Shown: positions 2,984-40,475 of the stretch, piece after piece
How positions within the stretch are numbered: position 1 is the first letter of the stretch
How the letters are laid out: each line of letters opens with the position of its first letter
Assembly: GCA_963816215.1 (NCBI GenBank)
Contig: CAWFKB010000007.1
Location: forward strand, 89,202-153,201
Reading direction: 5' to 3'
From: an uncultured Chloroflexia bacterium
GTDB lineage: Bacteria > Chloroflexota > Limnocylindria > QHBO01
Length of the DNA stretch: 64,000 bases
Made by a program: the position numbers and the translations under genes
The notes under the pieces: generated by a model
Seen by the model: the letters and a program-made list of their open reading frames with translations, nothing else
Database searches by the model: none
Told to the model about the DNA's origin: nothing

Positions 2984-5818
2984 ATGGCCTCATCCACGAC
3001 CTCGAGCGGCCGGACCGACGCGCTGATCAGCGTGGCGCAGGCGGCTGCCCTGCTCGGAGTCCATCCCAACACCGTTCGAGCGTGGACCGAGAGTGGCCGC
3101 CTCACCGCCTGGCGGATCAACCCTCGTGGCGACCGGCGTTACCGAAAGGCAGACGTCGAACGTCTCCTGGCCGAGGGAGCCGCCGCGACCGGGAGTGAGC
3201 CCGCAGGCTCGAGCGACGCCGGCCCGGGAAGCCCTCGCATCACCGATTCAGACGTCGAAACGGCGGTCTTGACCAGAATCTCGCAGGGCACCGTGGACGC
3301 CGGCAGCGTGGCCGCGGTGTGCCGCGTGACGGTCGAGTCGCTGCGCACGATCGAGGCCATCGCCCGGGTGGCGGTGTACCTCGTCCGCGACGACCGCCTC
3401 GTGCTCGAAACCCACGCTGGGCACAGCACGCCCCCACCGCCCACCATGGCCTGGCCAGGCGAAACCGACGAATTCGCGCCCGACGGGTCGATTCGCCTGC
3501 CGCTGACCATCGGGCAGGAGCGCATCGGCTTGCTGGTGGCCACCGATGATTCCGATGGCGCATTCCTCAAGTCTCGCCGCCGATTCATGTCCTCCGTGGC
3601 CGGGACCGCGAGCGTGGCCCTGCGCCATGCCCGAGTCATCGCCCGCGCTCGTCGCGAGCTGACCCGCGCTCGTGCTCTGGCCAGCGTCACCCGCGAGCTG
3701 ACCGGCCAGCTGGAGCTGGGCGCGGTCCTGAGCGACATCGCCGACCGGACCCGGGGTCTGTTCGACGCCGACCGGGTGGGCCTCTGGATGCTGACCGAGG
3801 AACGCGAGCATCCCTTCGACCTGGCCGCGGAACGGAGCATCAGCCCGGCGTTCCAGTCCATGGTCGGATCGCTCACCCTCAATTCCCCCTCGCTCGGCAC
3901 CCAGGCCGTCCGCGAACGGCGCACGTTCGTGGCGCGCCATGCCGACACCGACCCATCCGTGGGCGTGCTCCAGGAGGTCTACCGCGCCGAAGGGGTGAAG
4001 ACCGCGTGTCTCGTGCCCCTGGTTTCCCATGACCGGGCGGTGGGCGTCATCGGCCTGTATCACTCCCACGACCGCGAATGGCCCGACGACGAGCTGGCCC
4101 TGGCCCAGGCCTTCGCCAACCAGGCGGCGGTGGCCATCAGCAACGCCCGCCTGTACCGCTCGACCGCGGAGCAGGCCGCCCGCATGCGGTCCATTCACGA
4201 CCTGTCTGCCCGCCTGAACCGCCTGACCGACGTGCAGGCCATCGCCGACGCCATCGTGGCCGAGGCGAGCACGCTCGCCGCCTTCCACGACATCCGGATC
4301 TACACCGTGGACTGGGAGCACGGAACGTGCGAGCCCATCGCCTTCACCGACCGACTCCAGGGGGATGGTGACTTCCGCGACCTGCTGCGGGTCGACATCG
4401 GTGCCGGATCGTTCACTGGCTGGGTCGCCGCCAACGCGCAGCCCATCCTCAGCAACGACGCCCTGAATGACACGCGTGGCCACACGATCGAGGGCACTGA
4501 CGAGATCGAGGAGTCGATGCTGGTCGTGCCCATGGTCTACGAGGGCCGCTCGGTGGGCGTCATCGCCCTGTCCAAGCTGGGTGTCAACCAGTTCTCGACC
4601 GATGACCTGCAGACCATGATGATTTTCGCCGGCTACGCGGCCCAGGCCCTCGTCAATGCGCGCAGCTACCGTCGCCTGGAGGAGCAGTCGAGCCAGCTGG
4701 CTCGGCAGCTGGAATCGCAGCGCAAGCTCCTCGACGTGAGCGCGCACGTCATGGGCACCCTCGAGCAGGAGGACATCCTGGAGACCGTCGCCGACGGCCT
4801 CAAGGCGGTGGTCCACTACGACAACCTGTCGATCTACCGCGCCGACGTCGTCAAGCAGGTCCTCGTCCCGGTCCTGACCCGCGAGCAGCACGCAGAAGAG
4901 GTGATGCGCTACATCATCCCGTTCGGGCGGGGCCTCATGGGATGGGTGGTCCAGAACGCGCAGGCCGTGCTGGCCAACGACGCGCTGGCCGATCCGCGCG
5001 CGCTCCAGATCCCCGGCACCCCGGCGGACCAGGAGGCGCTGATCGTTGTCCCGCTCATCAGCGACGGCCAGGTCACGGGCTCCATGAACGTGAGCCGAAA
5101 TGGTGGCGAGGAGGTCTACTTCAGCGAAACCGATTTCGAGCTGGTCCAGCTGTTCGCCGCGCAGGCAGCCGTGGCCCTCCGCAACGCGGACGAGCACCAC
5201 GCCATGAGCCAGCGGGCGGAGACCGATGCCCTGACCGGGCTGGGCAACCACGGCGCCTTCCAGCGCGACCTGGCCACCTCGATCGACCTGGCCCGCGATG
5301 CCACGCCGGGCAATGGCCAGCTGGGCCTGTTGATGATGGACCTCGACCGCTTCAAGTCCTACAACGACCGATTCGGCCATCCGGCCGGCGACGCGCTGCT
5401 CCACGCCGTGGGCGAGGCGCTGTACGCCGCCACGCGCAGCGACGACCGCGTGTACCGATACGGTGGCGACGAGTTCACGGTCGTGCTGGCGGGCGTGGGG
5501 CTGCCCGAGGCCCAGCGGGTCGCCGAGCGCGCCCGACGCATGGTTGCCGCGGTGTCCATTGAGAGTGGGGCCGCCCCGGTCACGATCACCGTGGGCGTGG
5601 CCCTCTTCCCTGATCACGGGGCCGACAAAGACGCACTGATCGGCGCGGCCGACGCGGCGCTGTATACCGGCAAGCAGGCCGGTGGCGACCGGGTCGTGAT
5701 CCCCGGCGAGAAGCCGAAGACCCGCGCTCCCAAGGCGTCCGCCTCACGCGATCCGCGGCGTGCGGTAGAGCAGCGCCGACGCCGCAGCGACAACCGCACC
5801 AAAACGACCGCGGCCTGA
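2984..5818 (+). CDS. Diguanylate cyclase with N-terminal MerR/excisionase-type HTH and four GAF domains (HTH-GAFx4-GGDEF)
   Basis: 944-aa ORF. N-terminus LLGVHPNTVRAWTESGRL...RRYRKADVERLL (HTH_17-like), four GAF-like blocks, and a C-terminal GGDEF domain with RYGGDEF. Confidence 0.85.
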   Translation: MASSTTSSGRTDALISVAQAAALLGVHPNTVRAWTESGRLTAWRINPRGDRRYRKADVERLLAEGAAATGSEPAGSSDAGPGSPRITDSDVETAVLTRISQGTVDAGSVAAVCRVTVESLRTIEAIARVAVYLVRDDRLVLETHAGHSTPPPPTMAWPGETDEFAPDGSIRLPLTIGQERIGLLVATDDSDGAFLKSRRRFMSSVAGTASVALRHARVIARARRELTRARALASVTRELTGQLELGAVLSDIADRTRGLFDADRVGLWMLTEEREHPFDLAAERSISPAFQSMVGSLTLNSPSLGTQAVRERRTFVARHADTDPSVGVLQEVYRAEGVKTACLVPLVSHDRAVGVIGLYHSHDREWPDDELALAQAFANQAAVAISNARLYRSTAEQAARMRSIHDLSARLNRLTDVQAIADAIVAEASTLAAFHDIRIYTVDWEHGTCEPIAFTDRLQGDGDFRDLLRVDIGAGSFTGWVAANAQPILSNDALNDTRGHTIEGTDEIEESMLVVPMVYEGRSVGVIALSKLGVNQFSTDDLQTMMIFAGYAAQALVNARSYRRLEEQSSQLARQLESQRKLLDVSAHVMGTLEQEDILETVADGLKAVVHYDNLSIYRADVVKQVLVPVLTREQHAEEVMRYIIPFGRGLMGWVVQNAQAVLANDALADPRALQIPGTPADQEALIVVPLISDGQVTGSMNVSRNGGEEVYFSETDFELVQLFAAQAAVALRNADEHHAMSQRAETDALTGLGNHGAFQRDLATSIDLARDATPGNGQLGLLMMDLDRFKSYNDRFGHPAGDALLHAVGEALYAATRSDDRVYRYGGDEFTVVLAGVGLPEAQRVAERARRMVAAVSIESGAAPVTITVGVALFPDHGADKDALIGAADAALYTGKQAGGDRVVIPGEKPKTRAPKASASRDPRRAVEQRRRRSDNRTKTTAA

Positions 5819-5866
5819 CCACCTGATCCGGGTCGGCGGCGACCGGATGCTATCCTCGCCCCCTCC

Positions 5867-6580
5867 ATGCGCCAGCCTCGCCGGTTCCGCCTGCCCGTCG
5901 TGGTGGTCGCCGTCGCCCTGGCCCTGGCCACCGCCGGCTGCGCCTCGTCTCCCTCGCCATCTCCGAGTGCGGGCGCGTCCGAGTCGGCGGGGCCCACGCC
6001 CACCCCGCTTCCCACGCCCGAGCCCACGCCGCGGTTCACGAACGAGCCCGACCCGTCCCTGTCCGGACTGATCCCTGACGCGGTGGGCGCCGCGGCCGTC
6101 GACAAGCCGGACCCGGGCGATTACGGCCTCACCCCCGGCGACATCGGTCAGGCCGCCTACGGGGAGCTGGGCCTCCGATTCCAATCCCTGGTCATCGCCT
6201 TCGTGCGCGAGCCGCGGCTGAGCCTGTACGCCGTGCGGGTCGACGGCCCACCGGTCCAGACCGAGGACCTCGAGCCGTATCTCGCCACCGCCGGCCGCTA
6301 CGTGGGCATCGCGGGCCTGGAGCGCGAACCCTGGGAGCTGAAGGCCGTCGGCGATCGCTGGACCTGGGTCCGCCCATCGGACAGCGCCACCCTGGTCGGG
6401 ACCACGGTGTACACGTGGGCCGACGGGCACTACGTCTTCTTGATGATCGGCGTGGACGACGCCCAGAACCAGGCGATGCTGGCCCTGCTCCCCGGCGAAG
6501 CCCCGCCCAGCCCCAGCCCCGAGCCCAGCTCGACCGGGGAAAGCAGCCCCGTACCCTCGGCCCTTCCCAGCCCCTCCTAG
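5867..6580 (+). CDS. Lipoprotein with Pro/Ser-rich linkers
   Basis: ATG start, signal peptide with LATAGC lipobox, low-complexity PS/PT segments at both ends around a globular core. Confidence 0.6.
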   Translation: MRQPRRFRLPVVVVAVALALATAGCASSPSPSPSAGASESAGPTPTPLPTPEPTPRFTNEPDPSLSGLIPDAVGAAAVDKPDPGDYGLTPGDIGQAAYGELGLRFQSLVIAFVREPRLSLYAVRVDGPPVQTEDLEPYLATAGRYVGIAGLEREPWELKAVGDRWTWVRPSDSATLVGTTVYTWADGHYVFLMIGVDDAQNQAMLALLPGEAPPSPSPEPSSTGESSPVPSALPSPS

Positions 6581-6595
6581 ACTGTCGTCCAGCCC

Positions 6596-7600
6596 ATGGA
6601 CGACCACGAGGACCTGACCGGCTCAGCCCGGAAGCGCGACCGGCTCGCCCGCCTGCTGGCGGTGGCCTCGATCCTCTATGCCAAGGGCAGCACCGAGCAG
6701 GGCGTCCCGGTCACCGAGATTGCGAGCCTGACCGGCATGAACGTGCGGACCGTGTACCGCGACCTGCGCGCCCTCGAGGACGAGCTGTCGGTCCCGATCT
6801 TCCAGGCCGGCCGGGGCCGGTATGGGATTGAGCGCAAGTTCTTCCTGCCCCCGCTCCACCTGAGCGTGCCGGAGGCCATCGTCCTGTTCCTCGCCGCCCG
6901 CCTCATCGCGCGCTGGTCCGACGAGGCGGACCAGGTCGTCATCTCGACCTTCACCAAGATCGCGAGCGAGCTGCCGCAGCCCATCGCCCGCCACGTGACC
7001 GCGACCATGCTCGCGGTGGGGGCCCAGGGCGCGAACGAGCGCTTCACGGCCATCTTCAACAGCGTGGCCCGTGGCTGGGCCGAGGGCCGGGTGGTGGACA
7101 TCGTCTACGAGGGCACCAACGGCGAGACGCGCCAGACCCGGGTCCAGCCCTACGCCCTGGAGCCGTATGCGGAGGGGCGGAGCATCTATCTCATCGCTTT
7201 CGATGAGTCTGTCGGCGCCCTGCGCACGTTCAAGGTGGAGCGCATTCGGCAGGCCATCCTGACCCTGGATCCGTACGAGATCCCCGAGACCTTCGACCCC
7301 GACCAGTTCTTCGCCCACTCGTGGGGCATCTGGTCGGCGGAGGGCACGCCGATCGAGGACGTGCACCTGCGGTTCGAGAAGTCGGTCGCGCGGCGTGTGC
7401 GCGAGACGGTGTGGCATCGGTCCCAGGTCCTGACCGATCTGCCCGATGGGCGGATCGAGATGATGGTGCGGGTGGCGGGCATCGTCGAGATCCGACCCTG
7501 GATCCTGTCCTGGGGAGACCAGGTGGAGGTGCTGGAGCCGGCCAGCCTGCGCGAGGCCGTCTCGGCCGCGGTCCGGGGAGCGGCTGCCCGTTACGGCTGA
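6596..7600 (+). CDS. WYL-domain transcriptional regulator (HTH-WYL-WCX, PafC-like architecture)
   Basis: 334 aa. N-terminal DeoR-like HTH (VTEIASLTGMNVRTVYRDLRALE), central WYL-type block (YALEPYAEGRSIYLIAFDESVGALRTFKVERI), and a C-terminal WCX-like segment (WGDQVEVLEPASLREAV). Confidence 0.8.
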   Translation: MDDHEDLTGSARKRDRLARLLAVASILYAKGSTEQGVPVTEIASLTGMNVRTVYRDLRALEDELSVPIFQAGRGRYGIERKFFLPPLHLSVPEAIVLFLAARLIARWSDEADQVVISTFTKIASELPQPIARHVTATMLAVGAQGANERFTAIFNSVARGWAEGRVVDIVYEGTNGETRQTRVQPYALEPYAEGRSIYLIAFDESVGALRTFKVERIRQAILTLDPYEIPETFDPDQFFAHSWGIWSAEGTPIEDVHLRFEKSVARRVRETVWHRSQVLTDLPDGRIEMMVRVAGIVEIRPWILSWGDQVEVLEPASLREAVSAAVRGAAARYG

Positions 7601-8310
7601 GCGGACGCCCGGTCTGGCGTGTCGAGGGGGAGGCGGAGGATGAGGGCCAGGGTCGGCCGGTCGGGGAGCGGCGCTGGGACGAGGGGAGCACGCAACCAGG
7701 CTTCACCGGCCGGTCCGGAGCGGTAGCGGGACGACAGGCGACGCGCGGACAAGCCATCGATCCCGAGCCGCGCCAACGCCTCGGCCACCAGCGTCCCGTC
7801 GCTGCGATATCCGTGGCCAACGGTGATCCGATCGCCGGGGGCCAGGATCGCCGCAAGCCAGTCTCGGCGAACGGAGAACGACCGCCGCATGACCGATTCC
7901 CCGCCGGCCCATAACAGGTCAGCAGCGACGTATGCCGCCCGCCCGGGCCGCGGCTGACGACCTTCCAGGCGGGCACGCAGGAGGTCTGAATCGGGCCGAC
8001 CAGCGTCGTCCAGCACGAGCAGGGTCCCCTCCACGACCACCCCGTCCTCGCTCAGCTGGGCGGGCAGCTCCGCCAGCTCGGGGAACGCCGCTTCCGCATC
8101 GGCCAGCCCCGCCACCTGGAGGCGGACCCGGCCGCGCTCGGCGAAGGCCAACGCCCGCGCGCCGGGCCACCACGGCTCGAACAGGTAGTCGGGATCATCG
8201 AACGGCGCCGGGGCATCCGACGGTTGCATGAGCGCGATCCGGGCGGGGAGACGGGCCGGCCGCGGATCGAGGTCGGGCTCCGCCGGCAGGGGCAGCTGTT
8301 CGGCCGGCAC
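7591..8310 (-). CDS. ATP-dependent DNA ligase-like (LigD ligase-domain homolog) with motif-I lysine substituted. Probably non-catalytic.
   Basis: 239 aa, GTG start 8 nt after the Ku stop. Ligase motifs are recognisable but degenerate: motif I is EPWWPGAR instead of EPKWDGxR; motif IV is YVAADLLWAGGESVMRRSFSVRR; motif V is DGLSARRLSSRYRSGPAGEAWLRA with K->R. No OB domain. Confidence 0.6.
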   Translation of the reverse strand: MPAEQLPLPAEPDLDPRPARLPARIALMQPSDAPAPFDDPDYLFEPWWPGARALAFAERGRVRLQVAGLADAEAAFPELAELPAQLSEDGVVVEGTLLVLDDAGRPDSDLLRARLEGRQPRPGRAAYVAADLLWAGGESVMRRSFSVRRDWLAAILAPGDRITVGHGYRSDGTLVAEALARLGIDGLSARRLSSRYRSGPAGEAWLRAPLVPAPLPDRPTLALILRLPLDTPDRASAQP

Positions 8311-8318
8311 GCCGCGCG

Positions 8319-9224
8319 TCAGGCGGTCTTGCGCCGCCGGGTCTGACGCGTCTCGTCGGCCTCCGCCGGCTTGGCCGCGCGGCTGCGTTTCGCGGGCGCT
8401 GGCTTGCTCTCGGCCTGGGCGTCCCCGGCGGCCGCATCGCGCCGGGCCTCGCGGGCCGCGGCCACGCTCGCCTCGAGGGCGGCCATGAGGTCGCCGATGC
8501 GGGTGGGCTCGGCCTGGGCGATGGGCGTTGGCTCCTGGCCGGCGACCTTGGCCTCGATGACGCCCATCAGCGCCTCGCGGTATCCGTCGCGGTACTCGGA
8601 CGCGTCGAACGTGCCGGTCATGGACGCGATCAGCTGTTCCGCCATCTTCCGTTCCGAGGCCTTGATCTCGATCCCTTCCCGGTCCACCGCGATCTCCTCG
8701 ATCGGGCGCACCTCGTCGGGCCAGTGGAGGGTGGTCAGGAGCATCGACTCCGAATACGGGTTGATGGCGGCCAGCTGCTCGCGGTCCTTCATGACCACCT
8801 TGCAGATGGCGGTCTTGTTGGCATCGGCCAGGACCTCGCGCAGGAGGAAGAAGGCCTTCTTGCCGACCGGGTCGGGCTCGAGGTAGTAGGCGCTCTTCAC
8901 GAACTGCGCGCCATGGGCTTCCTCATCGGCATCGACGAAGGTCTCGATCTCGATGGCCCGGATCGTCTTGAGCGGCACGGCCTCCAGGTCGTCATCGGTC
9001 ACGACCACGTATCGGCCCTTGCTCCACTCATAACCGCGCACCGTTTCCGAGCGCGGCACGACCTCGTCGTGGAACGGGCAGTAGATCTTCATCTGGATCC
9101 GGTTCAGGCAGCTGGCATGCAGCATGTTGAAGCCGATGCCGCTGGACTCGGTCGCCAGGTACAGCTTGACGGGAATGGTCACCAATCCGAATTGGATGGC
9201 GCCCCGCCACATCGCGCGTGCCAT
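8319..9224 (-). CDS. ku: Ku protein (non-homologous end joining)
   Basis: Classic N-terminus MARAMWRGAIQFGLVTIPVKLY, followed by a Ku core and a basic C-terminal tail. I take the ATG at 9224, since the longer ORF upstream adds a junk-like extension. Confidence 0.85.
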   Translation of the reverse strand: MARAMWRGAIQFGLVTIPVKLYLATESSGIGFNMLHASCLNRIQMKIYCPFHDEVVPRSETVRGYEWSKGRYVVVTDDDLEAVPLKTIRAIEIETFVDADEEAHGAQFVKSAYYLEPDPVGKKAFFLLREVLADANKTAICKVVMKDREQLAAINPYSESMLLTTLHWPDEVRPIEEIAVDREGIEIKASERKMAEQLIASMTGTFDASEYRDGYREALMGVIEAKVAGQEPTPIAQAEPTRIGDLMAALEASVAAAREARRDAAAGDAQAESKPAPAKRSRAAKPAEADETRQTRRRKTA

Positions 9225-9276
9225 AGGGTCGGTGAGGATACACCCGGTCTTCCAGCCCCCCAAACCGGCCGTAGGG

Positions 9277-9717
9277 TCAGGACGGCCCGGTGACGACCAC
9301 GAGCGCCTGCTCCTCCGGCAGGCCAGGCCGATTGAGCCGATAGCGGTGCTCGATCCGGACCGAGTGGCTCAGCATCCGCGACACCGGGCAGTAGCGGGTC
9401 GCCGACAGCTCGACCGCGCGGCTGAGGGCCGCCGGTTCCACGGCGCCGGTTACCTGGTGCTCGACCACGATGGTGGTGAAGACGTGCGGCGGGGCCGGCG
9501 CCATCTCGGCCTGCACGGCGATCTCGTAGCGCTCGGGCACCTGGCGCTTCTTGGCCAGGATGCTGGCCACGTCCATGGCCGTGCAGCCCGCGAGGCCGAC
9601 CAGGACCGCTTCCCGGGGTGAGGCGCCAACCCGTTGGGCAGCGTCGGCCGAGTCGAGGACGATCGTGAAGCCCGAGCCGGTCGTGGCGTCGGTGCGCAGG
9701 GAGGCCGCCGGATCCAC
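9277..9717 (-). CDS. OsmC/Ohr-family peroxiredoxin-like protein
   Basis: 146 aa with the OsmC signature GASPREAVLVGLAGCTAMDVASIL. Confidence 0.8.
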   Translation of the reverse strand: MDPAASLRTDATTGSGFTIVLDSADAAQRVGASPREAVLVGLAGCTAMDVASILAKKRQVPERYEIAVQAEMAPAPPHVFTTIVVEHQVTGAVEPAALSRAVELSATRYCPVSRMLSHSVRIEHRYRLNRPGLPEEQALVVVTGPS

Positions 9718-9743
9718 GACCCGGGCCTGGACGCGGAGCCCGC

Positions 9744-10349
9744 TTACGGGTTGTCCTCCAGGGGCGTGGGAATCCAGCCGCGGACTTCCTCCTCGGGGAG
9801 GATGTCGGCCAGGAGGTTGTCGTGCTCGCGCTCGTCGGCGATCAGGAAGACCTGGGCCAGGGCCCGGTGCACGGCCACGACGTCGGCGGTCCCGTCCACG
9901 GCGGGGTAGGGCGCGCAGCTGACGGCGACATCGGTCAGGGGCACGAAGCGGTCGGACACGTTCATCAGGCCATCCATGGCCTGGCTGGCCTCGGGGACGT
10001 GGAACATGCCGGTCAGCCAGAACGGCGCGATCCCGACCTGGATCTTCACGGGGCGCTTCTGGACCTGGAACTCGTTGTCATCGTCCGGGGCGCCGCTGCT
10101 GATGCCGAACAGGATCTCGCTGATCGCGACCCGCACCTGCTGGCCGCCGCGGGCGGCGCCCTGATCGGCGTACTCCGTCACCGTCGCCTGGTCCACCGCG
10201 AGGTGGTCGGAGCCGGACAGGTTGAGGATGTCGGTGGCCTTGCGGAACCGGGTGGACATCGTGCCCGACACGCGGAAGCCGACCGTGTAGAGCTCGACCT
10301 GGACGGGGAGGGTCGGAGGTCCCAGCGATCCGGCGTCCCAGCTGCTCAC
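9744..10349 (-). CDS. Hypothetical protein (no family recognised)
   Basis: 201-aa ORF with GTG start and protein-like composition, packed tightly between the methyltransferase and OsmC genes on the same strand. Confidence 0.45.
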   Translation of the reverse strand: MSSWDAGSLGPPTLPVQVELYTVGFRVSGTMSTRFRKATDILNLSGSDHLAVDQATVTEYADQGAARGGQQVRVAISEILFGISSGAPDDDNEFQVQKRPVKIQVGIAPFWLTGMFHVPEASQAMDGLMNVSDRFVPLTDVAVSCAPYPAVDGTADVVAVHRALAQVFLIADEREHDNLLADILPEEEVRGWIPTPLEDNP

Positions 10350-10358
10350 ATACCGATG

Positions 10359-11129
10359 CTACCGCTTGCGCGCCTTCCAGACCTCCTCACTCGGCCAGTT
10401 TCGGGCCCACTCGAGGGTCGAGATGTTCGTGTACCGGGTCTCGGCGCCTTCGGGGGCGCGAATCTCGACCAGGTCGGTGACCTCGAATCCGCTGCTCACC
10501 AGCAACCGGATCATGTCGCCGTGGGACAGGTGGAACTCGACGCTGTCCTCATCGGTCCACTCGAATCGGTGCATCCCGAACTGGGGACGGATGAGCCTGT
10601 CGGTGGCAGGCCCGTCCACCTCGAGGTCGGGCACGCTCAGCATCAGCAGGACGCTGTTGCCCAGGAAGATGAGCTCGCCGCCCGGTCGCAGGAGGCGCGC
10701 CGCCTCGGGGATCCACTGGTACGGGTCGGCCCAGATGGCCGCGCCGTACTCGGAGATCGCCAGGTCGAAGCTCGCCTCGGGAAGCGGCACCTGTTCGGCG
10801 AATCCCAGGATGAGCGGGAACTCCAGCCCGTGCTCGGCCTGGAGGCGTCGCGCGGTCTCGAGCTGGCGGGGCGAGTTGTCGAGGCCCACCACCCGGGCGC
10901 CCCGTCGAGCGAGCCAGGCGGAGACGTAGCCCGTCCCGCAGCCCAGCTCGATGGCGTCCTTCCCCGCCAGGTCGTCCGGCAGGAGATGCAGCTCGGACTC
11001 GGGCACGCCCCAGATCCCCCACCCCGGCTCGTCCGACGCCCAGTTCCGCTCACCGGCCGCCACGTACTCCTCGGCGGCGGTATCCCACCAGGCGCGGTTG
11101 CGTCGGACGTGCTCGGGCAACTCTGCCAT
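10359..11129 (-). CDS. Class I SAM-dependent methyltransferase
   Basis: Motif I ELGCGTGYVSAWLARRGARVVGLD. ATG at 11129. The long N-terminal extension in the ORF track is Arg-rich junk. Confidence 0.75.
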   Translation of the reverse strand: MAELPEHVRRNRAWWDTAAEEYVAAGERNWASDEPGWGIWGVPESELHLLPDDLAGKDAIELGCGTGYVSAWLARRGARVVGLDNSPRQLETARRLQAEHGLEFPLILGFAEQVPLPEASFDLAISEYGAAIWADPYQWIPEAARLLRPGGELIFLGNSVLLMLSVPDLEVDGPATDRLIRPQFGMHRFEWTDEDSVEFHLSHGDMIRLLVSSGFEVTDLVEIRAPEGAETRYTNISTLEWARNWPSEEVWKARKR

Positions 11130-11187
11130 CAGGCGCCGGACGGTACCCGATCGGCCCCGGCCCCGCAGCGATGTGTACGATCGGCGC

Positions 11188-13536
11188 ATGGAGCCGTCCA
11201 CCGCCAACGTCCTGGGCGCGGACGCACCGACGTTCAGCGCCGAGCAGGCGCAGGACATCGTGGCGGCGGTGTGGGGTCGGCGCGGAACGGCGACGCCCCT
11301 CGTCTCCGAGCGGGACCAGAACTTCCGCCTGACCGATGAACACGGCACGTCGTGGGTCCTGAAGATCGCGAACGCGGTCGAGGACCCGGGCGTGGTGGAC
11401 ATGGAGGTCGAGGCCGTCCGCCACGTGGCACGGATGGACCCCGATCTCCCGGTCGCGGTCCCCATCCCGACCGATGACGGGCCGTCGGTTGTCTCGCTCC
11501 CCGGCCCACGTGGCGAGGTGCACCTGGTCCGGCTCCTGCCCTTCATGCCGGGGGCGCACGTCGATGCGGCCGACCTGGATCTCGACGCGATCACGGAGAT
11601 CGGACGGACAACGGCGCGCCTGGGGCGTGCCCTGCGCGGCTTCTTCCACCCGGCCGCGGGGCGCGTGATCCTGTGGGACATCAAGCATCTGGACGAGCTG
11701 CGTCCCCACCTGGGCGCCGTGGCCGACCCCGCGCGACGGGCGATGGTTGATCGGGCCCTGGAACGGTTCGACGTGCGGGTGGCGCCGGCCCTGCCCGGGC
11801 TGCGGGCGCAGGTCATCCACAACGACGCGACCCTGGACAACCTGCTGCTCGACGGCGGCCGCGTGTCAGGGATCGTGGACTTCGGGGACATGGCCCACAC
11901 CGCGCTGATCCTGGACCTGACCGCCATGCTGCAGTCCGTCCTGCGCGGTCGGGCCGACGTGTGGGAGGCCGCCGAGGCGGCCATCCAAGGCTACGGTTCG
12001 GTCATTCCCCTCGAAGCCGAGGAGGGCGACCTGCTGGCCGATCTGCTCGCCGCGCGGATGGTGCAGACCGTGCTCATCTCCGTGTGGCGCACCGCCCAGT
12101 ACCCCAACAACGAGTACATCCGAGGCTGGCTGGAACCGGCCTACGAGCTGCTCGATGCAATGGAGGCCTTCGGCTATGACGAGGCCGTTCGACGCCTGGC
12201 CGCCGCTGCGGGAAGCGCGGGCGCAGGAGCGCGCGATGCGCGCCGCACCATCATCCCGACCGAGGAGCTGCGGGAGCGCCGCCAACGGGTGCTCGGTTCC
12301 GCGCTGTCACCCCTGACCTACGACCGGCCACTGCATCTCGTCCGCGGTGACGGGGTGTGGCTGTACGACGCCGAGGACCGCGCCTACGTGGACGCCTACA
12401 ACAATGTGCCGGTCGTGGGCCACGCCCACCCGGTCGTGGTGGAGGCCATCGCCCGCCAGGCGGCAGACCTGAACACGAACACCCGCTACCTCCACGAGTC
12501 GGTCGTGCTCCTCGCCGAGCGCCTGACGGCCAGCATGCCCGAGGAGCTCGACACCGTCATGTTCGTGAACTCCGGGAGCGAGGCCAACGACCTGGCCTGG
12601 CGGCTGGCGACGGTGGCCACCGGCGGCACCGGCGGCATCTGCACCACCTGGTCGTACCACGGCCTGACCGCGGCCATCGCGGACCTGTCCTCCTCGGAGT
12701 GGCCGCGCGGGGAGCGGCCCGCATCGGTCGAAACGATCCCGGCTCCAGATCCGCTGCGCGGACCCCACCACGACCAGCTGGACGTGGACGTCGCCAGCGC
12801 CGCGGAGCTGGGCGCGGCCGCCGCGCGGCTGGTAGAGCAGGGCGTCACTCCGGCGGCCGTGTTCGTGGACGGGACGTTCACTGCCGATGGAATCTTCCCC
12901 ACCACGCCTGCGTACCTGGCCGAGCTCCGCCGCCAGACCACCGCCGCGAACGTGATCTACGTGGCGGACGAGGTCCAGGCCGGGCACGGTCGGACCGGGG
13001 ACCTGTGGAGCTTCGGGGCGTCGGGGGTCACGCCCGACCTGGTGACCCTGGGCAAGCCGATGGGCAACGGCCACCCGGTGGCGGCGGTCGTCGCCCGCTC
13101 GGAGATCGTGGATCGGTTCGCGGCGGAGCACGAGTACTTCAGCACCTTCGGCGGCAACCCCGTCGCGTGCGCCGCGGCGCTGGCGGTGCTGGACGTGATC
13201 GACGACGAGGGGTTGCTTCAGAACGCCGCGACCGTCGGTGGTCTCCTGCGGGACGCCGTGGAGGCCATGGCCGCCGACCACCCGGCCATCGGTGACGTCC
13301 GGGGCCGCGGCCTGATGGTCGGGGTGGACCTCATGGTCGACCGCGGGACGCGCGAGCCGGCCTCGGACCTGGCGCACCGGGTCATGAACGAGATGCGCGA
13401 GCGCGGAGTCCTGATCAGCACCACCGGGCGTTTGGGCAACGTCCTGAAGATCCGTCCCCCGCTGGTCCTGACCGCGTCCCAGGCCGAGCTGATCATCACC
13501 GCCCTGGACGACTCGCTGCGCGCCGCCGGCGCCTAG
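11188..13536 (+). CDS. Bifunctional fusion: APH/choline-kinase-fold phosphotransferase (N-terminus) + class-III PLP aminotransferase-like domain (C-terminus). Candidate aminoalcohol/hydroxylysine kinase + phospho-lyase.
   Basis: N-terminal half has the kinase catalytic loop [29 protein letters not shown]-terminal half has class-III aminotransferase motifs [16 protein letters not shown] and the PLP-lysine block [10 protein letters not shown]. Starts at ATG 11188. Confidence 0.85.
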
Positions 13537-13559: not shown

Positions 13560-15284
13560 CTACTCCGGGGGCAACGACCCGCGGGTCGCGATCCGCGCGT
13601 CCCGCCCGCCCTGCCCGGTGGCCAGCAGGATCCGACCGCTGGCCTGCGCCTCGAACAACGTTTCGACGGACGCCAGGTCGTCGATGTCGGCCACCGTCTT
13701 GTCCTCGCGGACGCGGACGATCCGCGGGAAGCGCAGCGCAAAGCCGCTCCCGTGGCGCGTGCTGCGCATGATCCGGTCGAACGCGATCTCGACCACGACC
13801 TCGGGCACCACGCTGCGGTAGCGGCCGAAGTCGCGGAGCGTGGTCTTCTGGAAATGCTCGGTGAAGGCGGCGATCTCCGCATCGGTCAGGCCGGTGTAGG
13901 CCTTGCCCACCACGGACAGGCCCGATCCATCGGTCTCGCGCACGGCAAAGGTGTAATCGGACAGCACGCCCCGGCGCTTGCCGTGGCCCCACTCGACGCC
14001 CACCACCACGCAGTCGAGGGTGGCGAGCGCCTTCTTGAGCTTCAGCCAGCCGAGCCCGCGACGACCCGGCTGATAGACCGATGCCGGGTCCTTGACCATG
14101 AGCCCCTCGTTGCGCCGCTCGCGAGCGGCGTCGAACAGAGCGTCCACCTCGTCCGTGCTCGTGGCCCGATCCAGGCGGGCGTACAGGAGCCGGCCATCGG
14201 TCTTGCCCGGCAGATCGAGCGCTTCCAGGGCCGCCCGGCGCTCGCGGAGCGGCGTCTCCAGCAGGTCGCGCCCGTCGACGTGTAGCACGTCGAACGCGAC
14301 CAGGACCACCGGTACGCGCTCCAGGAGTGCGGCGTCGGGATTGACCCGGCCAAGACGCCGCTGGAGGGCGGCGAAGTCCAGGACGGCGCCCGCCTTGAAC
14401 GGGATCAGCTCCCCGTCCAGGACCAGGTCATGGCCGAGGGAGGCAACCGAGCTGACGACCTCCGGGAAGGAGACGGTGATCTCCTTCAGGTCGCGGCTGA
14501 AGAGGCGCGCGGTGCCGCTGGCGAGATGGAGCTGAGCCCGGATGCCGTCGTACTTGTCCTCGATCCAGGCCTCGTCACCCACCCGGCGCACGACCTCCGC
14601 CGCGTCCCCGACCGGGGTCGCGAGCATGGGTCGGATGGGTCGTCCCAGGTGCAGGCCGGCGGTGTCGAGCTGGCCGCGCCGGGCCAGGGTGGCTGCCTCA
14701 CCGGGTTCGCCCAGGAGCATCAGCGCGCGTCGAACCGATGCCTGCGGCGCGTCGAAGGCGGCGGCAATGGCCTCCTCCAACAGGCCCTCACGCAGACCAA
14801 TGCGCGTTTCGCGTGCCGCGATCCGCGCGACGTATCGGGCTTCGTCAGGCGTGGCCCGCCGGAACAGCTCGGTCATGACCGCCACCCGGGCGTCGGTGGT
14901 CGGGGCATCGGCCATGGCCCGGTAGCCGTCGGCCACGTCGCCCACGGTCAGTACCGGGCCCGCGGGACGCTGGGCGGCAAGGAGGTCCGCCGCCGCATCC
15001 CCGAAGTCGGAGTGGCGGAGCCACGCGGCGGACATCGCTTCTTCTGCGGCCCCGCTGGCTGCGGCCAGGGCGGCGGCCTGCTGGACCCATCCCAGGCCGA
15101 GACGGTCCGCGGCGCCGGGGAGCGGCTTGCCCGACAGGAACGTTGCGGCGCGCGGCAGATCCGCGGCCGGCAGGTCATGCAGGTAGGCGGCCAGGATGTC
15201 GCGCTTGGCGAGCTTGGACCGGGTCGCCGCCACCGCGTCCGCGGTGGCGGCAAAGGCACTGAACGGGGAGCTTCGGGATGCCAT
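13560..15284 (-). CDS. lig: ATP-dependent DNA ligase (LigB/Lig1-like, with N-terminal DNA-binding domain)
   Basis: 574 aa. Motif I EDKYDGIRAQ, motif III LDGELI, motif V GLMVKDPASVY, motif VI WLKLK. Confidence 0.85.
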   Translation of the reverse strand: MASRSSPFSAFAATADAVAATRSKLAKRDILAAYLHDLPAADLPRAATFLSGKPLPGAADRLGLGWVQQAAALAAASGAAEEAMSAAWLRHSDFGDAAADLLAAQRPAGPVLTVGDVADGYRAMADAPTTDARVAVMTELFRRATPDEARYVARIAARETRIGLREGLLEEAIAAAFDAPQASVRRALMLLGEPGEAATLARRGQLDTAGLHLGRPIRPMLATPVGDAAEVVRRVGDEAWIEDKYDGIRAQLHLASGTARLFSRDLKEITVSFPEVVSSVASLGHDLVLDGELIPFKAGAVLDFAALQRRLGRVNPDAALLERVPVVLVAFDVLHVDGRDLLETPLRERRAALEALDLPGKTDGRLLYARLDRATSTDEVDALFDAARERRNEGLMVKDPASVYQPGRRGLGWLKLKKALATLDCVVVGVEWGHGKRRGVLSDYTFAVRETDGSGLSVVGKAYTGLTDAEIAAFTEHFQKTTLRDFGRYRSVVPEVVVEIAFDRIMRSTRHGSGFALRFPRIVRVREDKTVADIDDLASVETLFEAQASGRILLATGQGGRDARIATRGSLPPE

Positions 15285-30729: not shown

Positions 30730-30967
30730 CGCCCGATCCTACGCGAGAGGAATCGGTCAGAAGGGCTGGTTTTGGGCATTCGAGGGGGATATAGTCGCCC
30801 GCGTCACGCCGCGCCGGCGCCCGTCCCGCGTCGCTCTCGCAGGTCCCGCCGCGCAGGAGAAAGGAGCCGCCCGCCGGCATCACTGTCCCTCGCAACTGCC
30901 TGTGTCCGCCCCGCCCGAACTCGCGGGGTGTTCGCCCCCTTCAGACCCAGCAACAGTGAGGTTTCGG

Positions 30968-32584
30968 ATGTCGCAGATGTCCAGCAAGGACGATGTGCTG
31001 GCGCAGGATCGCAGCGACCTGCACGGCCTCGGCTACGCCCAGGAGCTCCTTCGGTCCATGGGCGGATTCAGCAACTTCGCGATCAGCTTCTCAATCATTT
31101 CCATCCTGACCGGCGCGGTCATCCTCTACAACTACGGCCTCAATCTGGCCGGTCCGGCCGCGGTCGGCATCGGCTGGCCGCTTGTCACGTTCTTCACGCT
31201 GATGATCGCCGCCACCATGGCCGAGCTCGCATCGGCATACCCCACCGCCGGCGGTCTCTACTACTGGGCCAGCAAGCTCCGCAACAAGGACTGGGGCTGG
31301 TGGACGGCGTGGCTGAACCTGGGTGGCCAGGTCTCGATCGTGGCCGGCATCAACTACTCGGCGGCGTTCTTCCTGACAGCCACGATCATCAACCCCCTGC
31401 TCGGCGGGACGTTTGATCCCGCCGCCGATACACTCGGCGTCCAGAACGCCATCTGGATGACCGGCGTCCTCATCGCGATCGAAGTCGTATTCAACGTAGC
31501 CGGAACCCGGATCGTGGCGTTCATGAACGACCTGTCCGTGTGGTGGCACATCTTCTTCGTGGCCGCCATCGCCATCGCCCTGGTGACCATTGGCACGCAG
31601 CCGACCAATGACATCGACTTCCTGTTCACCGTCGCGCCGGCCGGAACGGCGGCGGATGGTACGCCGTGGGAACAGATCATCCCCTTCGGCATTGCGGGTG
31701 CGTTCGCCCTGAGCCTGCTGCAGGCGCAGTGGACATACACCGGGTACGACGCATCGGCCCACGTCGCCGAGGAGACCGTCTTCGCTCGGCGGGCTTCGGC
31801 CTGGGGCGTGTTCCTCTCGGTGGCCGTCTCCGCCATCGCGGGCTACGTCGTCCTCATGGCCCTGAACCTGAAGATGCCTCCGCCGGCTGACGTCATGGCC
31901 AACAGCGGCGGCTTGGGCATCAAGTACATCCTCGAGCAGAACCTGGGCGCGGGCCTCAACAACCTCGGCGGCCTCCTCGCGGCTGGCGTGGCGATCGCGA
32001 TGACGTTCTGCGGCTTCTCGTCGATCGCCTCGGCCGGGCGCATGCTGTTCGCCTTCAGCCGGGACGACGGTGTTCCCGGGAGTCGTTGGCTGAAGAATGT
32101 CAGCCACCGCTTCCGGACCCCGGCCAATTCGGTGATCGCGATCAGCCTCTTCTCGTGGTTGCTGATCATGCTGGTCTACCTGATCTTCACGCTGGCCGGC
32201 GCCGATCCGCTGTTCCTCATCGCCGGAATCGTCGGCGTGAGCACGGTGCTGCTCTACTGGGCCTACGGGCTCTGCATCCTGCTCGGCCTCATCGGCGATC
32301 AGTCATGGCGCGAGCGCCAGACCTGGAGCCTGGGCCGATGGAGCAAGCCGCTGGCCTGGATCTCGGTGATCTGGATCATCCTCATCACCCCGTTGTTCCT
32401 CTATCCGTTCGAGTTGAATGCAGCCTCCCTGGCGACCGTTGCCGGCTTCCTCGTGCTGCTGCTCGTCTACTACTTCGTATGGGCGCGGAGCCGGTTCAAG
32501 GGCCCGATCCCGCAGGGAACGGCCGAAGAGCTGGAAGCCATCGAACGCGAGTTCGAAGATGCGGCGACCGCTATCTCGACCTGA
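30968..32584 (+). CDS. APC-family amino acid/amine permease
   Basis: About 12-TM permease with APC-type segments. ATG at 30968. Confidence 0.8.
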   Translation: MSQMSSKDDVLAQDRSDLHGLGYAQELLRSMGGFSNFAISFSIISILTGAVILYNYGLNLAGPAAVGIGWPLVTFFTLMIAATMAELASAYPTAGGLYYWASKLRNKDWGWWTAWLNLGGQVSIVAGINYSAAFFLTATIINPLLGGTFDPAADTLGVQNAIWMTGVLIAIEVVFNVAGTRIVAFMNDLSVWWHIFFVAAIAIALVTIGTQPTNDIDFLFTVAPAGTAADGTPWEQIIPFGIAGAFALSLLQAQWTYTGYDASAHVAEETVFARRASAWGVFLSVAVSAIAGYVVLMALNLKMPPPADVMANSGGLGIKYILEQNLGAGLNNLGGLLAAGVAIAMTFCGFSSIASAGRMLFAFSRDDGVPGSRWLKNVSHRFRTPANSVIAISLFSWLLIMLVYLIFTLAGADPLFLIAGIVGVSTVLLYWAYGLCILLGLIGDQSWRERQTWSLGRWSKPLAWISVIWIILITPLFLYPFELNAASLATVAGFLVLLLVYYFVWARSRFKGPIPQGTAEELEAIEREFEDAATAIST

Positions 32585-32682
32585 GATCCATGCGACCCTG
32601 AACCAAGGACGGGCCGGCCGGGACAACCGGCCGGCCCGTCTCACCCGAGCGACCTGACACCGTGCCCGACGAGGACTTCGCG

Positions 32683-34062
32683 ATGACGACCACCAAGGAC
32701 CACCCCAGCAAAGCCGTCCTGACCCAGGCCATCCACGACGGGCAGATCGACACCCTGATCGTGGCCCTGACCGACATGCAGGGCCGCCTCATGGGCAAGC
32801 GGGTCCAGGGCCAGGCGTTCCTGAACGGCGCCATCGACCACGGCGCCCACTTCTGCACGTACCTCCTCGGCACGGACATGGAGATGAACACGCCCGATGG
32901 CTTCCAGCTCATGAACTGGGAGACGGGGTACGGCGACTGGATCGCCGATCCGCTATGGGACACCTACCGGGTGGTGCCGTGGCTGGAGAAGACGGCCATC
33001 GTCCTTTCCGACACGGTGGACCACCACGGGCACGAGATTGCCGTCTCGCCACGGACCATGCTCAAGCGCGTCGTCGAGAAGGCGACCGAGATGGGATTCC
33101 GGGCCATGGCCGGTTCGGAGTACGAGTACTACCTGCTGGCCGATACCTACGAGCAGGCCTGGGAGAAGGGCTACGTCGGGCTCAAGCGGTTCGGCTACTA
33201 CAACGAGGACTACCACCTCCTGCAGGCCACCAAGGGCGAGCCGATCCACGGCAAGCTGCGCAACCTCATGACCGAGGCCGGGATCCCGGTCGAGTTCAGC
33301 AAGGGCGAGGCGGCGCCCGGCCAGCACGAGGTCAACATCCACTACACCGACGTGCTGGAGATGGCCGACTGGTCGGTCCTCTTCAAGCACGGGGCCAAGG
33401 AGATCGCCTGGCTGAACGGGATGGGCCTGACCTTCATGGCCAAGCCCGATCACACCTGGACCGGCTCCAGCGGCCACCTGCACATGTCCCTGTGGGACAA
33501 GACCGGCAAGAAGGCGCTCTTCTACGACCCCAAGGCCGAGCCGTACGGCATGTCGAAGACCATGCGCCACTTCCTGGGCGGGATGATGAAGTACTCGCGC
33601 GAGCTCTCGATCTTCTGGGCCTGGAACGTGAACTCGTACAAGCGCTACGCCGTGGCGTCGTGGGCGCCGGTGAACGTGGTGTGGGGGCGGGACAACCGCA
33701 CCACCGGGTTCCGGATCGTGGGCGACGAGTCGGGGCTCCACGTCGAGAACCGCTTCCCCGGCGGCGACATGAACCCGTACCTGGCGTACGCCGCGGTGAT
33801 CGGGGCCGGGCTGCTGGGGATCGAGCGCGAGATCGAGCCGCCGGACGAATACGTGGGAAACGGGTACGTGGCCACCGGCTGCGACCGCATGCCGCGCGCG
33901 CTGCACGAGGCCATCCGCGAGCTCGAGGCCAGCGAGGCGGCAGCCGACATCTTCGGTCCCAACGTCGTGGCCCACTACCTCAACGCGGCGCGCGTGGAGC
34001 AGGAGACCTACGACGCGATCGTCCATCCGTGGGACCGCGAGCGCTACCTGGAACGGGGCTAA
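32683..34062 (+). CDS. Glutamine synthetase-like gamma-glutamyl-amine ligase (PuuA/GlnA3/GlnA4-type)
   Basis: GS catalytic-domain motifs (HYTDVLEMADW, GSSGHLHMSLW, NRFPGGDMNPYLA). I prefer the ATG at 32683 (AGGA 8 nt upstream) over the GTG at 32662. Confidence 0.8.
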   Translation: MTTTKDHPSKAVLTQAIHDGQIDTLIVALTDMQGRLMGKRVQGQAFLNGAIDHGAHFCTYLLGTDMEMNTPDGFQLMNWETGYGDWIADPLWDTYRVVPWLEKTAIVLSDTVDHHGHEIAVSPRTMLKRVVEKATEMGFRAMAGSEYEYYLLADTYEQAWEKGYVGLKRFGYYNEDYHLLQATKGEPIHGKLRNLMTEAGIPVEFSKGEAAPGQHEVNIHYTDVLEMADWSVLFKHGAKEIAWLNGMGLTFMAKPDHTWTGSSGHLHMSLWDKTGKKALFYDPKAEPYGMSKTMRHFLGGMMKYSRELSIFWAWNVNSYKRYAVASWAPVNVVWGRDNRTTGFRIVGDESGLHVENRFPGGDMNPYLAYAAVIGAGLLGIEREIEPPDEYVGNGYVATGCDRMPRALHEAIRELEASEAAADIFGPNVVAHYLNAARVEQETYDAIVHPWDRERYLERG

Positions 34063-34065
34063 CCG

Positions 34066-34833
34066 ATGCGATTGAGCGACAAGGTCGCCGTCATCACCGG
34101 CGCCGGAAGCGGGATGGGCCGCACGGCGGCCCTGATGTTCGCGGCCGAGGGCGCCAAGGTGGTGGTGGCCGAGTACGACGAGGCGGCCGGCGCCGAAACC
34201 CGCGACCAGGTGATGGCCGCGGGCGGGGACGCCGTGTTCGTGAAGACCGATGTCTCGTCAGAGACCGATGCGGCCGCCATGGTGGCGGCCGCCATGGATC
34301 GGTATGGGCGGCTGGACGTCCTCTACAACAATGCCGGGATCATGCCCGAGGCCGATCACTCGGTGACCGACACCGACGTCGAGACCTGGGACCAGGTGAT
34401 GGCCATCAACGTCCGTGGCGTGTTCCTGGGCTGCAAGTACGCGATCCCGCGCATGCTGGAGCAGGGGTCCGGATCGGTCATCAACATCAGCTCGTTCGTC
34501 GCCCTGCTCGGCTGCTCGGTCCCGCAGGACGCGTACACCGCCTCGAAGGGCGCCGTGCTGTCGCTGACCCGGTCATTGGCCGTCCAGTTCGGTCCCCAGG
34601 GAGTGCGCTCCAACGCCATCTGCCCCGGCCCCATCGAGACGCCGCTCCTCATGGACTGGCTGCTGAAGGACGAGGCGGCCAAGAACCTGCGCCTCGCCCG
34701 CAACCCCACCGGCCGGTTCGGCAAGCCCGAGGAGATCGTGAACGTGGCTGTCTACCTGGCCTCGGACGAGTCACGCTGGACGAACGGCGCCCATTTCGTC
34801 ATCGACGGCGGAATCAGCGTCAACTACTTCTAG
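34066..34833 (+). CDS. Short-chain dehydrogenase/reductase
   Basis: TGAGSGMG cofactor motif, NNAG, catalytic YTASK. Confidence 0.85.
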   Translation: MRLSDKVAVITGAGSGMGRTAALMFAAEGAKVVVAEYDEAAGAETRDQVMAAGGDAVFVKTDVSSETDAAAMVAAAMDRYGRLDVLYNNAGIMPEADHSVTDTDVETWDQVMAINVRGVFLGCKYAIPRMLEQGSGSVINISSFVALLGCSVPQDAYTASKGAVLSLTRSLAVQFGPQGVRSNAICPGPIETPLLMDWLLKDEAAKNLRLARNPTGRFGKPEEIVNVAVYLASDESRWTNGAHFVIDGGISVNYF

Positions 34834-34882
34834 GGCCGGGCAACAGGTCGCTCGCCTGACCGGGGATATACTCGGGCCCCTG

Positions 34883-40385: not shown

Positions 40386-40406
40386 GTTCCCGTTGCGCCC
40401 GCCCAG

Positions 40407-40443
40407 GCGAGCGGCTCGGCGCCCCGGCGCTCGAGCCGCTCGC
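40407..40443 (+). repeat. Strong GC-rich inverted repeat/hairpin between the permease and kinase genes
   Basis: GCGAGCGGCTCG GCGCC CC GGCGC TCGAGCCGCTCGC: arms of about 17 bp with a single bulge. Confidence 0.5.
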
Positions 40444-40475
40444 GCATTTCCGCACGAGATTCGAGGGCCGCTGGA

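Follow-up and report, generated by a model that had tools for sequence, protein, structure and literature searches.

In animals, hydroxylysine kinase (HYKK), a kinase of the APH fold, feeds the phospho-lyase PHYKPL, a pyridoxal 5'-phosphate (PLP) enzyme of the class-III aminotransferase fold. The animal phospho-lyase ETNPPL receives its phosphoethanolamine from ethanolamine kinases of the choline-kinase family. In 2012, Veiga-da-Cunha et al. reportedly identified AGPHD1 as the hydroxylysine kinase and AGXT2L1 and AGXT2L2 as phospho-lyases, and the occurrence of bacterial AGXT2L1/2 homologs fused with an APH-family kinase, in bi- or trifunctional proteins, is said to have been the clue behind these identifications. 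Here we describe a fusion of this kind, encoded at positions 11188-13536 (+ strand) of a 64,000-nucleotide stretch (the window) from an uncultured Chloroflexia bacterium (GenBank assembly GCA_963816215.1, contig CAWFKB010000007.1, positions 89,202 to 153,201; Limnocylindria in the GTDB lineage). Judged from homology, its product is most probably bifunctional and breaks down a vicinal (1,2-) amino alcohol with a terminal primary amine. An earlier note on this DNA had proposed such a kinase/phospho-lyase on the model of the animal enzymes, which it took to act in sequence on 5-hydroxylysine and ethanolamine; the sequence is correct for HYKK and PHYKPL, not for HYKK and ETNPPL. The bifunctional reading itself gains support from an HYKK-like N-terminal domain and a C-terminal domain of phospho-lyase type, the proposed chemistry being drawn from the homologs.

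The complete coding sequence of the fused kinase and phospho-lyase (11188-13536, +; ATG at 11188-11190, TAG at 13534-13536) comprises 782 uninterrupted codons and is supported by its translation, its Pfam domains and full-length homologs. A mechanically called open reading frame (ORF) reaches back to 10951, overlapping the divergent S-adenosylmethionine-dependent methyltransferase gene (minus strand, start at 11129); because the extension runs into that gene, the 10951 start is an artifact. Homologs 754-785 aa long align over 97-100% of the 782 residues, which places the start codon at 11188. The best of the homologs listed are 92-94% identical, and a protein with 92% identity is encoded by the closest genomic relative, a metagenome-assembled genome of Chloroflexia / Candidatus Limnocylindria type. 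Pfam recognizes APH (PF01636; residues 36-270, E 3.8e-22) followed by Aminotran_3 (PF00202; residues 382-775, E 1.3e-77), confirming the earlier note's observation of both folds in one polypeptide. Both Pfam domains are present in one protein in all 120 homologs listed (59-94% identity), and the fusion is therefore not an assembly artifact.

The N-terminal domain (residues 1-345, 11188-12222, +) is, by its homology, a hydroxylysine-kinase-like small-molecule kinase that resembles the antibiotic APHs only marginally. It matches Papio HYKK in BLASTP (128 bits, E 2e-38, 27% identity), and the profile-profile alignment of its family with the HYKK family (hhalign, 99.94%, E 8.5e-37, 319 columns) runs essentially end to end, with the motifs PLxSxxDQNF, VLKI, VRLLxxxPG, FHP, HxDxxxxN and SGIxDFGDM in common. 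The human HYKK reference sequence used here matches a database protein at 100% identity, and primate orthologs with 94-95% identity carry the name hydroxylysine kinase. Besides the fusion models considered below, the best NCBIfam match is homoserine kinase (55 bits); the APH(3') model scores 19 bits against a cut-off of 205, placing the domain outside the resistance APHs. The top PDB sequence match is the microcompartment aminopropanol kinase 6EF6 (34 bits, 17% identity), whose identity is confirmed by the PDB description and citation (Mallette and Kimber 2018), and no HYKK structure was found among the PDB matches. The AlphaFold model of residues 1-345 has a predicted local distance difference test score (pLDDT) of 89.5, and the best structural matches of the domain are metabolite kinases, 6EF6 included. 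Since the identity to HYKK is only 27%, the specificity of that enzyme (5-hydroxy-L-lysine, GTP) is not transferable.

The catalytic apparatus of the kinase has the hallmarks of the APH/eukaryotic-like kinase fold, namely a Lys-Glu pair, an HxDxxxxN loop and a DFG-type metal site. The nucleotide-phosphate-binding Lys59 (11362-11364, +), in a VLKI motif that aligns with VLKI of HYKK, is invariant in alignments of 17 and 33 sequences. The catalytic loop H211-N-D213-A-T-L-D-N218 (11818-11841, +) aligns with HGDLNDHN of HYKK and keeps H211, D213 and N218 invariant, and the metal-binding motif D231-F-G-D234 (11878-11889, +), also invariant, aligns with DFGD of human HYKK. In the 33-sequence full-length alignment, K59, E73, H211, D213, N218, D231 and D234 are invariant, as are the lyase residues D594 (in D594-EVQ597), Q597 and the PLP lysine K623; the catalytic motifs of both domains are likewise conserved in a 121-sequence alignment, where 75 of the 345 kinase-domain positions are at least 98% conserved. 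The intact kinase loop and PLP lysine reported in the earlier note are thus borne out, with all catalytic residues present and invariant in 33 homologs.

The C-terminal PLP-dependent domain (residues 359-782, 12262-13533, +) has the class-III aminotransferase fold, and comparison with characterized enzymes supports its assignment to the phospho-lyase type rather than to the transaminases. In a phmmer search of the PDB it matches Arthrobacter aurescens A1RDF1 (5G4I, 323 bits) and human ETNPPL (6TOR, 303 bits), followed by dialkylglycine decarboxylase (DGD, at most 202 bits), racemases and 4-aminobutyrate aminotransferase (GABA-AT, at most 192 bits). The same two structures rank first in a Foldseek search with the model (TM-score 0.91-0.92, target-normalized), and K623 and D594 align with their Schiff-base lysine and with the Asp paired to the pyridine nitrogen. 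That 5G4I is a phospho-lyase is confirmed by the PDB description and citation (Cuetos et al. 2016). Aligned jointly with the reference enzymes, the domain shows 41.4% identity with A1RDF1, 39.7% with ETNPPL and 38.1% with PHYKPL (the reference being an exact match to human Q8IUZ5), compared with 29.4% for AGXT2, 32.4% for DGD and 29.3% for GabT. A neighbor-joining tree unites the lyase-type sequences in one clade (157 of 200 bootstraps), to which AGXT2 is sister. The NCBIfam models for GABA-AT (200-222 bits, cut-offs 506-724) and for the (R)-1-hydroxy-2-aminoethylphosphonate ammonia-lyase PbfA (NF049939, 224 bits, cut-off 525) stay below their thresholds.

Four signatures, derived in this analysis by comparing three characterized phospho-lyases with four controls (AGXT2 from two species, DGD and GabT), are common to the query, its fused homologs, the split proteobacterial lyases described below and the three phospho-lyases; they are absent from all four controls and invariant among the homologs of the query. 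The first is the Y404-NNVPVVGH412 loop (12397-12423, +; [NS]NV[PA]-x-VGH), two residues shorter than in the transaminases, where the controls have SG-x6-GH. The second is Arg433 in NTNTRYL (12484-12486, +; [TS]-R-[YF]-L), an Arg in all lyase-type sequences that is absent in AGXT2, DGD and GabT. The third spans T620-630 (13045-13077, +; GK[PS][MI]GNGHP) and includes the PLP-binding Lys623 and His629; it reads AK/SK..G.G[FL]P in the controls, and its core GKPMGNGHP is identical in the query, ETNPPL and A1RDF1 and is GKSIGNGHP in PHYKPL. The fourth is Lys754 in NVLKIRPP (13447-13449, +; [VI]LK[IFM][RK]PP), a Lys in lyase-type sequences and an Arg in AGXT2, DGD and GabT. In class-III transaminases, the Arg at this position presumably binds the carboxylate of the substrate or acceptor; R433, H629 and K754, the last replacing that Arg, are candidates for accommodating phosphate rather than carboxylate. 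The earlier note had named two outcomes that would count against its proposal, a C-terminal half closest to genuine transaminases and an N-terminal half closest to antibiotic APHs, and had asked for domain-level alignment with the animal families. The alignments place the C-terminal half with the phospho-lyases (323 and 303 bits, with 202 as the highest score of any other match; 38-41% identity; Lys754 in place of Arg) and the N-terminal half end to end with HYKK (128 bits; 19 against 205 for APH(3')).

The two domains are joined by a short, flexible, Ala/Gly/Arg-rich linker (residues 346-358, 12223-12261, +) of low pLDDT and poor conservation, which occupies the place of the M23 domain found in tri-domain relatives. 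In the full-length model, both domains are well folded and linker residues 347-356 have a pLDDT below 50; because the predicted template-modeling score (pTM) is only 0.57, no defined interdomain arrangement is predicted. The only low-confidence segments of the lyase domain in this monomer model lie at the signature loops, at residues 369-376, 406-409, 429-433, 624-628 and 650-655 (12292-12315, 12403-12414, 12472-12486, 13057-13071 and 13135-13152), which would be consistent with an active site that needs the dimer and bound PLP for its completion.

In the first step of the proposed reaction, the HYKK-like domain would phosphorylate the hydroxyl of the amino alcohol with ATP or GTP as donor, Asp213 acting as the catalytic base, Asn218 and Asp231 holding Mg2+, and the Lys59-Glu73 pair holding the nucleotide phosphates. 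In the second step, the amine of the O-phospho-aminoalcohol would form an external aldimine with PLP in the C-terminal domain; removal of the α-proton next to the nitrogen would then allow elimination of phosphate from the neighboring carbon, and the released enamine would tautomerize and hydrolyze to an aldehyde and ammonium. The net reaction would be aminoalcohol + NTP + H2O → aldehyde + NH4+ + Pi + NDP (NTP and NDP, nucleoside tri- and diphosphate), with no requirement for vitamin B12. The phosphate-elimination chemistry is transferred by homology, being established for ETNPPL, PHYKPL and A1RDF1. Fusion guarantees 1:1 expression of kinase and lyase and may favor hand-over of the phosphorylated intermediate; with no fixed domain arrangement in the model, channeling is put forward only as a possibility.

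The pairing of the two domains recurs in three forms: as fused genes (Chloroflexota and haloarchaea), as tri-domain proteins and as adjacent genes. A tblastn search against plasmids gives 145 records that cover at least 80% of the query, including haloarchaeal plasmids on which kinase and lyase form a single fused gene. Adjacent genes annotated "phosphotransferase" and "aminotransferase class III-fold" are found in many Proteobacteria (Azospirillum, Shinella, Chelatococcus, Variovorax, Pseudomonas, Agrobacterium and an E. coli IncFIB plasmid), with 42-46% identity to the fused query; by domain, the split kinases are 33-40% identical to the N-terminal domain over its full length, and the split lyases 48-50% identical to the C-terminal domain. 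An exhaustive HMMER search with the N-terminal domain returns 1023 cluster representatives at E <= 1e-30; by length, 96 of the best 150 correspond to standalone kinases, 28 to two-domain proteins and 4 to proteins of about 1000 aa. The forms of about 1000 aa have the order APH-Peptidase_M23-Aminotran_3 and correspond to the NCBIfam models PRK06148 and PRK06149; the N-terminal domain of the query matches positions 6-341 of PRK06148 (249 bits), and the C-terminal domain positions 579-1011. This classic Rosetta-stone pattern implies that the kinase and lyase activities belong to one pathway.

The split proteobacterial kinase and lyase genes form a module with genes for a short-chain dehydrogenase/reductase (SDR), a GntR regulator and an ABC transporter, a copy of which is carried by the mobilizable E. 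coli IncFIB plasmid NZ_CP107722.1, recovered from a human rectal swab (3651-11219 of the stretch examined). In Shinella, the module adjoins diol dehydratase genes, and no annotated shell genes were found within the 7-8 kb flanks examined of the proteobacterial modules. The gene set of SDR, GntR regulator, kinase, lyase and transporter is that described for the mycobacterial RMM amino-alcohol locus (PMC4207490). In Streptomyces sulfonofaciens, a 44%-identical fusion ends a tight gene row (4443-10307 of the stretch examined) that begins with aconitase-family and metallo-beta-lactamase-fold genes, and a gamma-glutamyltranspeptidase gene lies upstream of the row. Because this context is unlike all others, the Streptomyces branch may act on a different substrate.

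Several observations weigh against the bifunctional reading. The nearest characterized relative of the kinase acts on 5-hydroxylysine, not on ethanolamine, and the signature loops of the lyase domain are of low confidence in the monomer model. The query stays below the curated NCBIfam cut-offs of PRK06148 (713 against 1128) and PRK06149 (556 against 973), which is explained by its lack of the middle M23 segment (model positions ~342-578). No permease, aldehyde dehydrogenase or regulator adjoins the fusion gene, the neighborhood in this lineage consisting of housekeeping and DNA-repair genes; with catabolic neighbors absent, gene context gives no support for any substrate. A literature search found no report of an assayed fused bacterial kinase/phospho-lyase. 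With 67% identity between them, ETNPPL and PHYKPL lie at the same distance from the query, so that homology cannot separate phosphoethanolamine from other phospho-aminoalcohols; a substrate call from overall similarity to one or the other was rejected on this ground.

Ethanolamine, which would be converted to acetaldehyde, is nevertheless the substrate that we tentatively favor. Where the signatures of ETNPPL and PHYKPL differ (NNV versus SNV, GKPM versus GKSI), the query sides with the phosphoethanolamine enzymes ETNPPL and A1RDF1, which is a weak hint at phosphoethanolamine. The same chemistry might instead serve 1-amino-2-propanol, derived from aminoacetone, threonine or cobalamin breakdown and converted to propionaldehyde as in the mycobacterial RMM; this we regard as possible and rather less likely. 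The best PDB sequence match of the kinase domain is the aminopropanol kinase 6EF6, although as a weak match it falls far under HYKK (34 against 128 bits), and split relatives occur in GntR-SDR-kinase-lyase-transporter modules with the gene set of the RMM locus (PMC4207490), in Shinella beside a diol dehydratase. This context points to 1-amino-2-propanol for the split proteobacterial branch, but SDR, GntR regulator and shell genes are all absent near the query locus and its fused relatives, and the NNV and GKPM positions match the two phosphoethanolamine lyases. Improbable by comparison is 5-hydroxylysine, for which the protein would combine HYKK and PHYKPL in one chain, a 5-hydroxylysine kinase with a 5-phosphohydroxylysine phospho-lyase yielding 2-aminoadipate semialdehyde. 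Among characterized enzymes, only hydroxylysine kinase resembles the kinase domain strongly and over its whole length, and PHYKPL shows the same lyase signatures; yet a kinase identity of 27% is low, the query departs from PHYKPL at the two positions just named, no lysine or aminoadipate catabolic genes are adjacent, and free 5-hydroxylysine, mainly a collagen product, is an unlikely staple for soil or freshwater Chloroflexota. The remaining probability falls to some other amino alcohol.

Two further explanations depart from the paired chemistry itself. The C-terminal domain might be a genuine aminotransferase, racemase or decarboxylase acting on a phosphorylated amine, perhaps in biosynthesis. 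Pfam and the public annotations indeed say just "aminotransferase class III", racemases, a decarboxylase and transaminases share the fold (Foldseek E ~1e-26), and the Streptomyces relative lies in the unusual aconitase / metallo-beta-lactamase-fold / fusion row. Against these stand the PDB phmmer scores, in which every transaminase trails by more than 100 bits, the replacement by Lys754 of the Arg of AGXT2, GabT and DGD, and the presence of the three other lyase-only signatures, which together make this explanation very improbable. A1RDF1, which carries the same signatures, was reportedly found by Cuetos in 2016 to be without transaminase activity. Least probable of all is that the N-terminal domain is a dead or regulatory pseudokinase, the lyase alone working on a phospho-aminoalcohol made elsewhere, for example by the choline/ethanolamine-kinase-type protein encoded at 40476-41444, which could supply such compounds; the canonical residues K59, E73, H211, D213, N218 and D231 are all present and invariant in the homologs, and the strong conservation of the kinase domain across 121 sequences also speaks against decay. 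The kinase/phospho-lyase pair remains our preferred reading.

The fusion gene is monocistronic and lies between the methyltransferase gene and a gene for an ATP-dependent DNA ligase, an arrangement conserved in related genomes; Ku, OsmC, DUF6812 and molybdopterin oxidoreductase genes are also among its neighbors. The 58-bp divergent intergenic region between the methyltransferase start and the ATG (11130-11187), in a window of ~70% G+C, contains no Shine-Dalgarno-like purine run, and a scan for sigma-70 consensus sites returned none; scanning for terminators gave no informative signal either. TACGAT is found at 11176-11181, six bases before the ATG; this spacing and the absence of a Shine-Dalgarno-like run suggest that the transcript may be leaderless. 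Non-homologous end-joining genes flank the fusion gene on both sides: Ku (8319-9263, -) and a short ORF with an ATP-dependent-ligase domain below the Pfam cut-off (7591-8310, -) on one side, and a full-length three-domain ATP-dependent DNA ligase (13560-15284, -) on the other. The arrangement is kept, with small rearrangements, in two related Limnocylindria-type genomes, and in a third relative the fusion gene lies among coenzyme A and fatty-acid genes. The SDR amino-alcohol dehydrogenase and GntR regulator of the RMM-type module are absent beside the fusion gene, as they are in the related genomes, and no recurrent metabolic partner was found near the fused relatives examined (Limnocylindria, a contig labeled Verrucomicrobiia, and Streptomyces).

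Two amine-related clusters, both of catabolic character, lie elsewhere in the window. The first, at 30956-36373 (+), is a row of four genes that encode an APC-type amino-acid permease, a ligase of the glutamine-synthetase family, an SDR and, last, an aldehyde dehydrogenase. The best NCBIfam matches of the ligase are type III glutamine synthetase and gamma-glutamylputrescine synthetase, all below cut-off, and the aldehyde dehydrogenase likewise stays under the cut-off of its best match, betaine-aldehyde dehydrogenase. Together the four genes resemble a gamma-glutamylation route for the catabolism of an amine (ethanolamine, a polyamine or similar), which would then be a second amine route in the same genome. 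The second cluster (38757-43864, +) comprises permease, choline/ethanolamine-kinase-like and dimethylglycine-dehydrogenase-like genes. A second APC permease is followed, within 38757-41444 (+), by a 322-aa APH / choline-ethanolamine-kinase-like protein (40476-41444), whose best NCBIfam match is the pre-guanitoxin N-oxide kinase GntI (266 bits, below the 357 cut-off) and which is unrelated to the N-terminal domain of the fusion. The dimethylglycine/sarcosine-dehydrogenase-like gene (41392-43864, +; DAO + FAO_M + GCV_T + GCV_T_C) is split in two ORFs by a +1 frameshift near 42150-42170, either a sequencing error or a pseudogene: frame 0 ends in ...DLPAAA and a stop, and the expected continuation LRDPDHLVYFRPEVGGLVMGGYE is found in the next frame. 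The earlier note had counted an ethanolamine/choline theme of the window in favor of its proposal. This argument does not hold, the clusters being 17-27 kb away behind unrelated housekeeping genes; a linkage with the fusion gene was accordingly rejected, and the shared amine theme is at most a thematic coincidence.

If the preferred reading is correct, a single protein would give a little-studied, uncultured lineage of soil and freshwater a B12-independent means of drawing nitrogen and carbon from compounds of the ethanolamine type, and thousands of proteins labeled only "aminotransferase class III-fold PLP-dependent enzyme" could receive a specific annotation. The four signatures separate phospho-lyases from transaminases in the small set compared and might serve as an annotation rule. 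A bolder extension, which we consider unlikely, is that the fusion provides Limnocylindria-type Chloroflexota and haloarchaea with their main B12-independent, NTP-driven route for ethanolamine or another abundant amino alcohol, or acts on a substrate new to the family, with direct transfer of the intermediate; its support consists of the existence of the fusion and the conservation of its gene as a stand-alone unit. The gain is incremental, since the use of kinase-lyase fusions to reveal the pathway was reportedly already a point made in 2012; the fusion gene merits a specific annotation and will not surprise specialists. A passage on gene fusions that reveal enzyme functions in a 2025 review cites Veiga-da-Cunha et al. 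2012 (PMC12138971).

Among the known systems, AGXT2, GabT and DGD resemble the query in fold, PLP lysine and DE[VA]Q motif, but have a longer SG-x6-GH loop, no equivalent of Arg433, F or L where the query has His629, and Arg where it has Lys754. The mycobacterial RMM for aminoacetone utilization and the proteobacterial GntR-SDR-kinase-lyase modules follow the same logic of a kinase and then a class-III-fold lyase; in these the enzymes are encoded by separate genes, together with SDR, GntR regulator and transporter genes (and shell proteins in mycobacteria), none of which lies near the query. Vertebrate HYKK and PHYKPL act in sequence, as proposed for the query, but are likewise separate genes, with 27% (kinase) and 38% (lyase) identity to it. 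ETNPPL (6TOR) and A1RDF1 (5G4I) share GKPMGNGHP, the shortened NNV loop, Arg433 and Lys754 with the C-terminal domain and, unlike the query, stand alone without a kinase domain. The bacterial bi- and trifunctional kinase/AGXT2L proteins of the PRK06148/PRK06149 type have the same order as the query, an N-terminal APH-fold kinase and a C-terminal class-III-fold domain of phospho-lyase type. The query lacks the ~240-residue Peptidase_M23 middle segment of their tri-domain members, comes from a Chloroflexota (Limnocylindria-like) lineage, and adds one member to a kinase/phospho-lyase architecture that is already recognized in bacteria and archaea.

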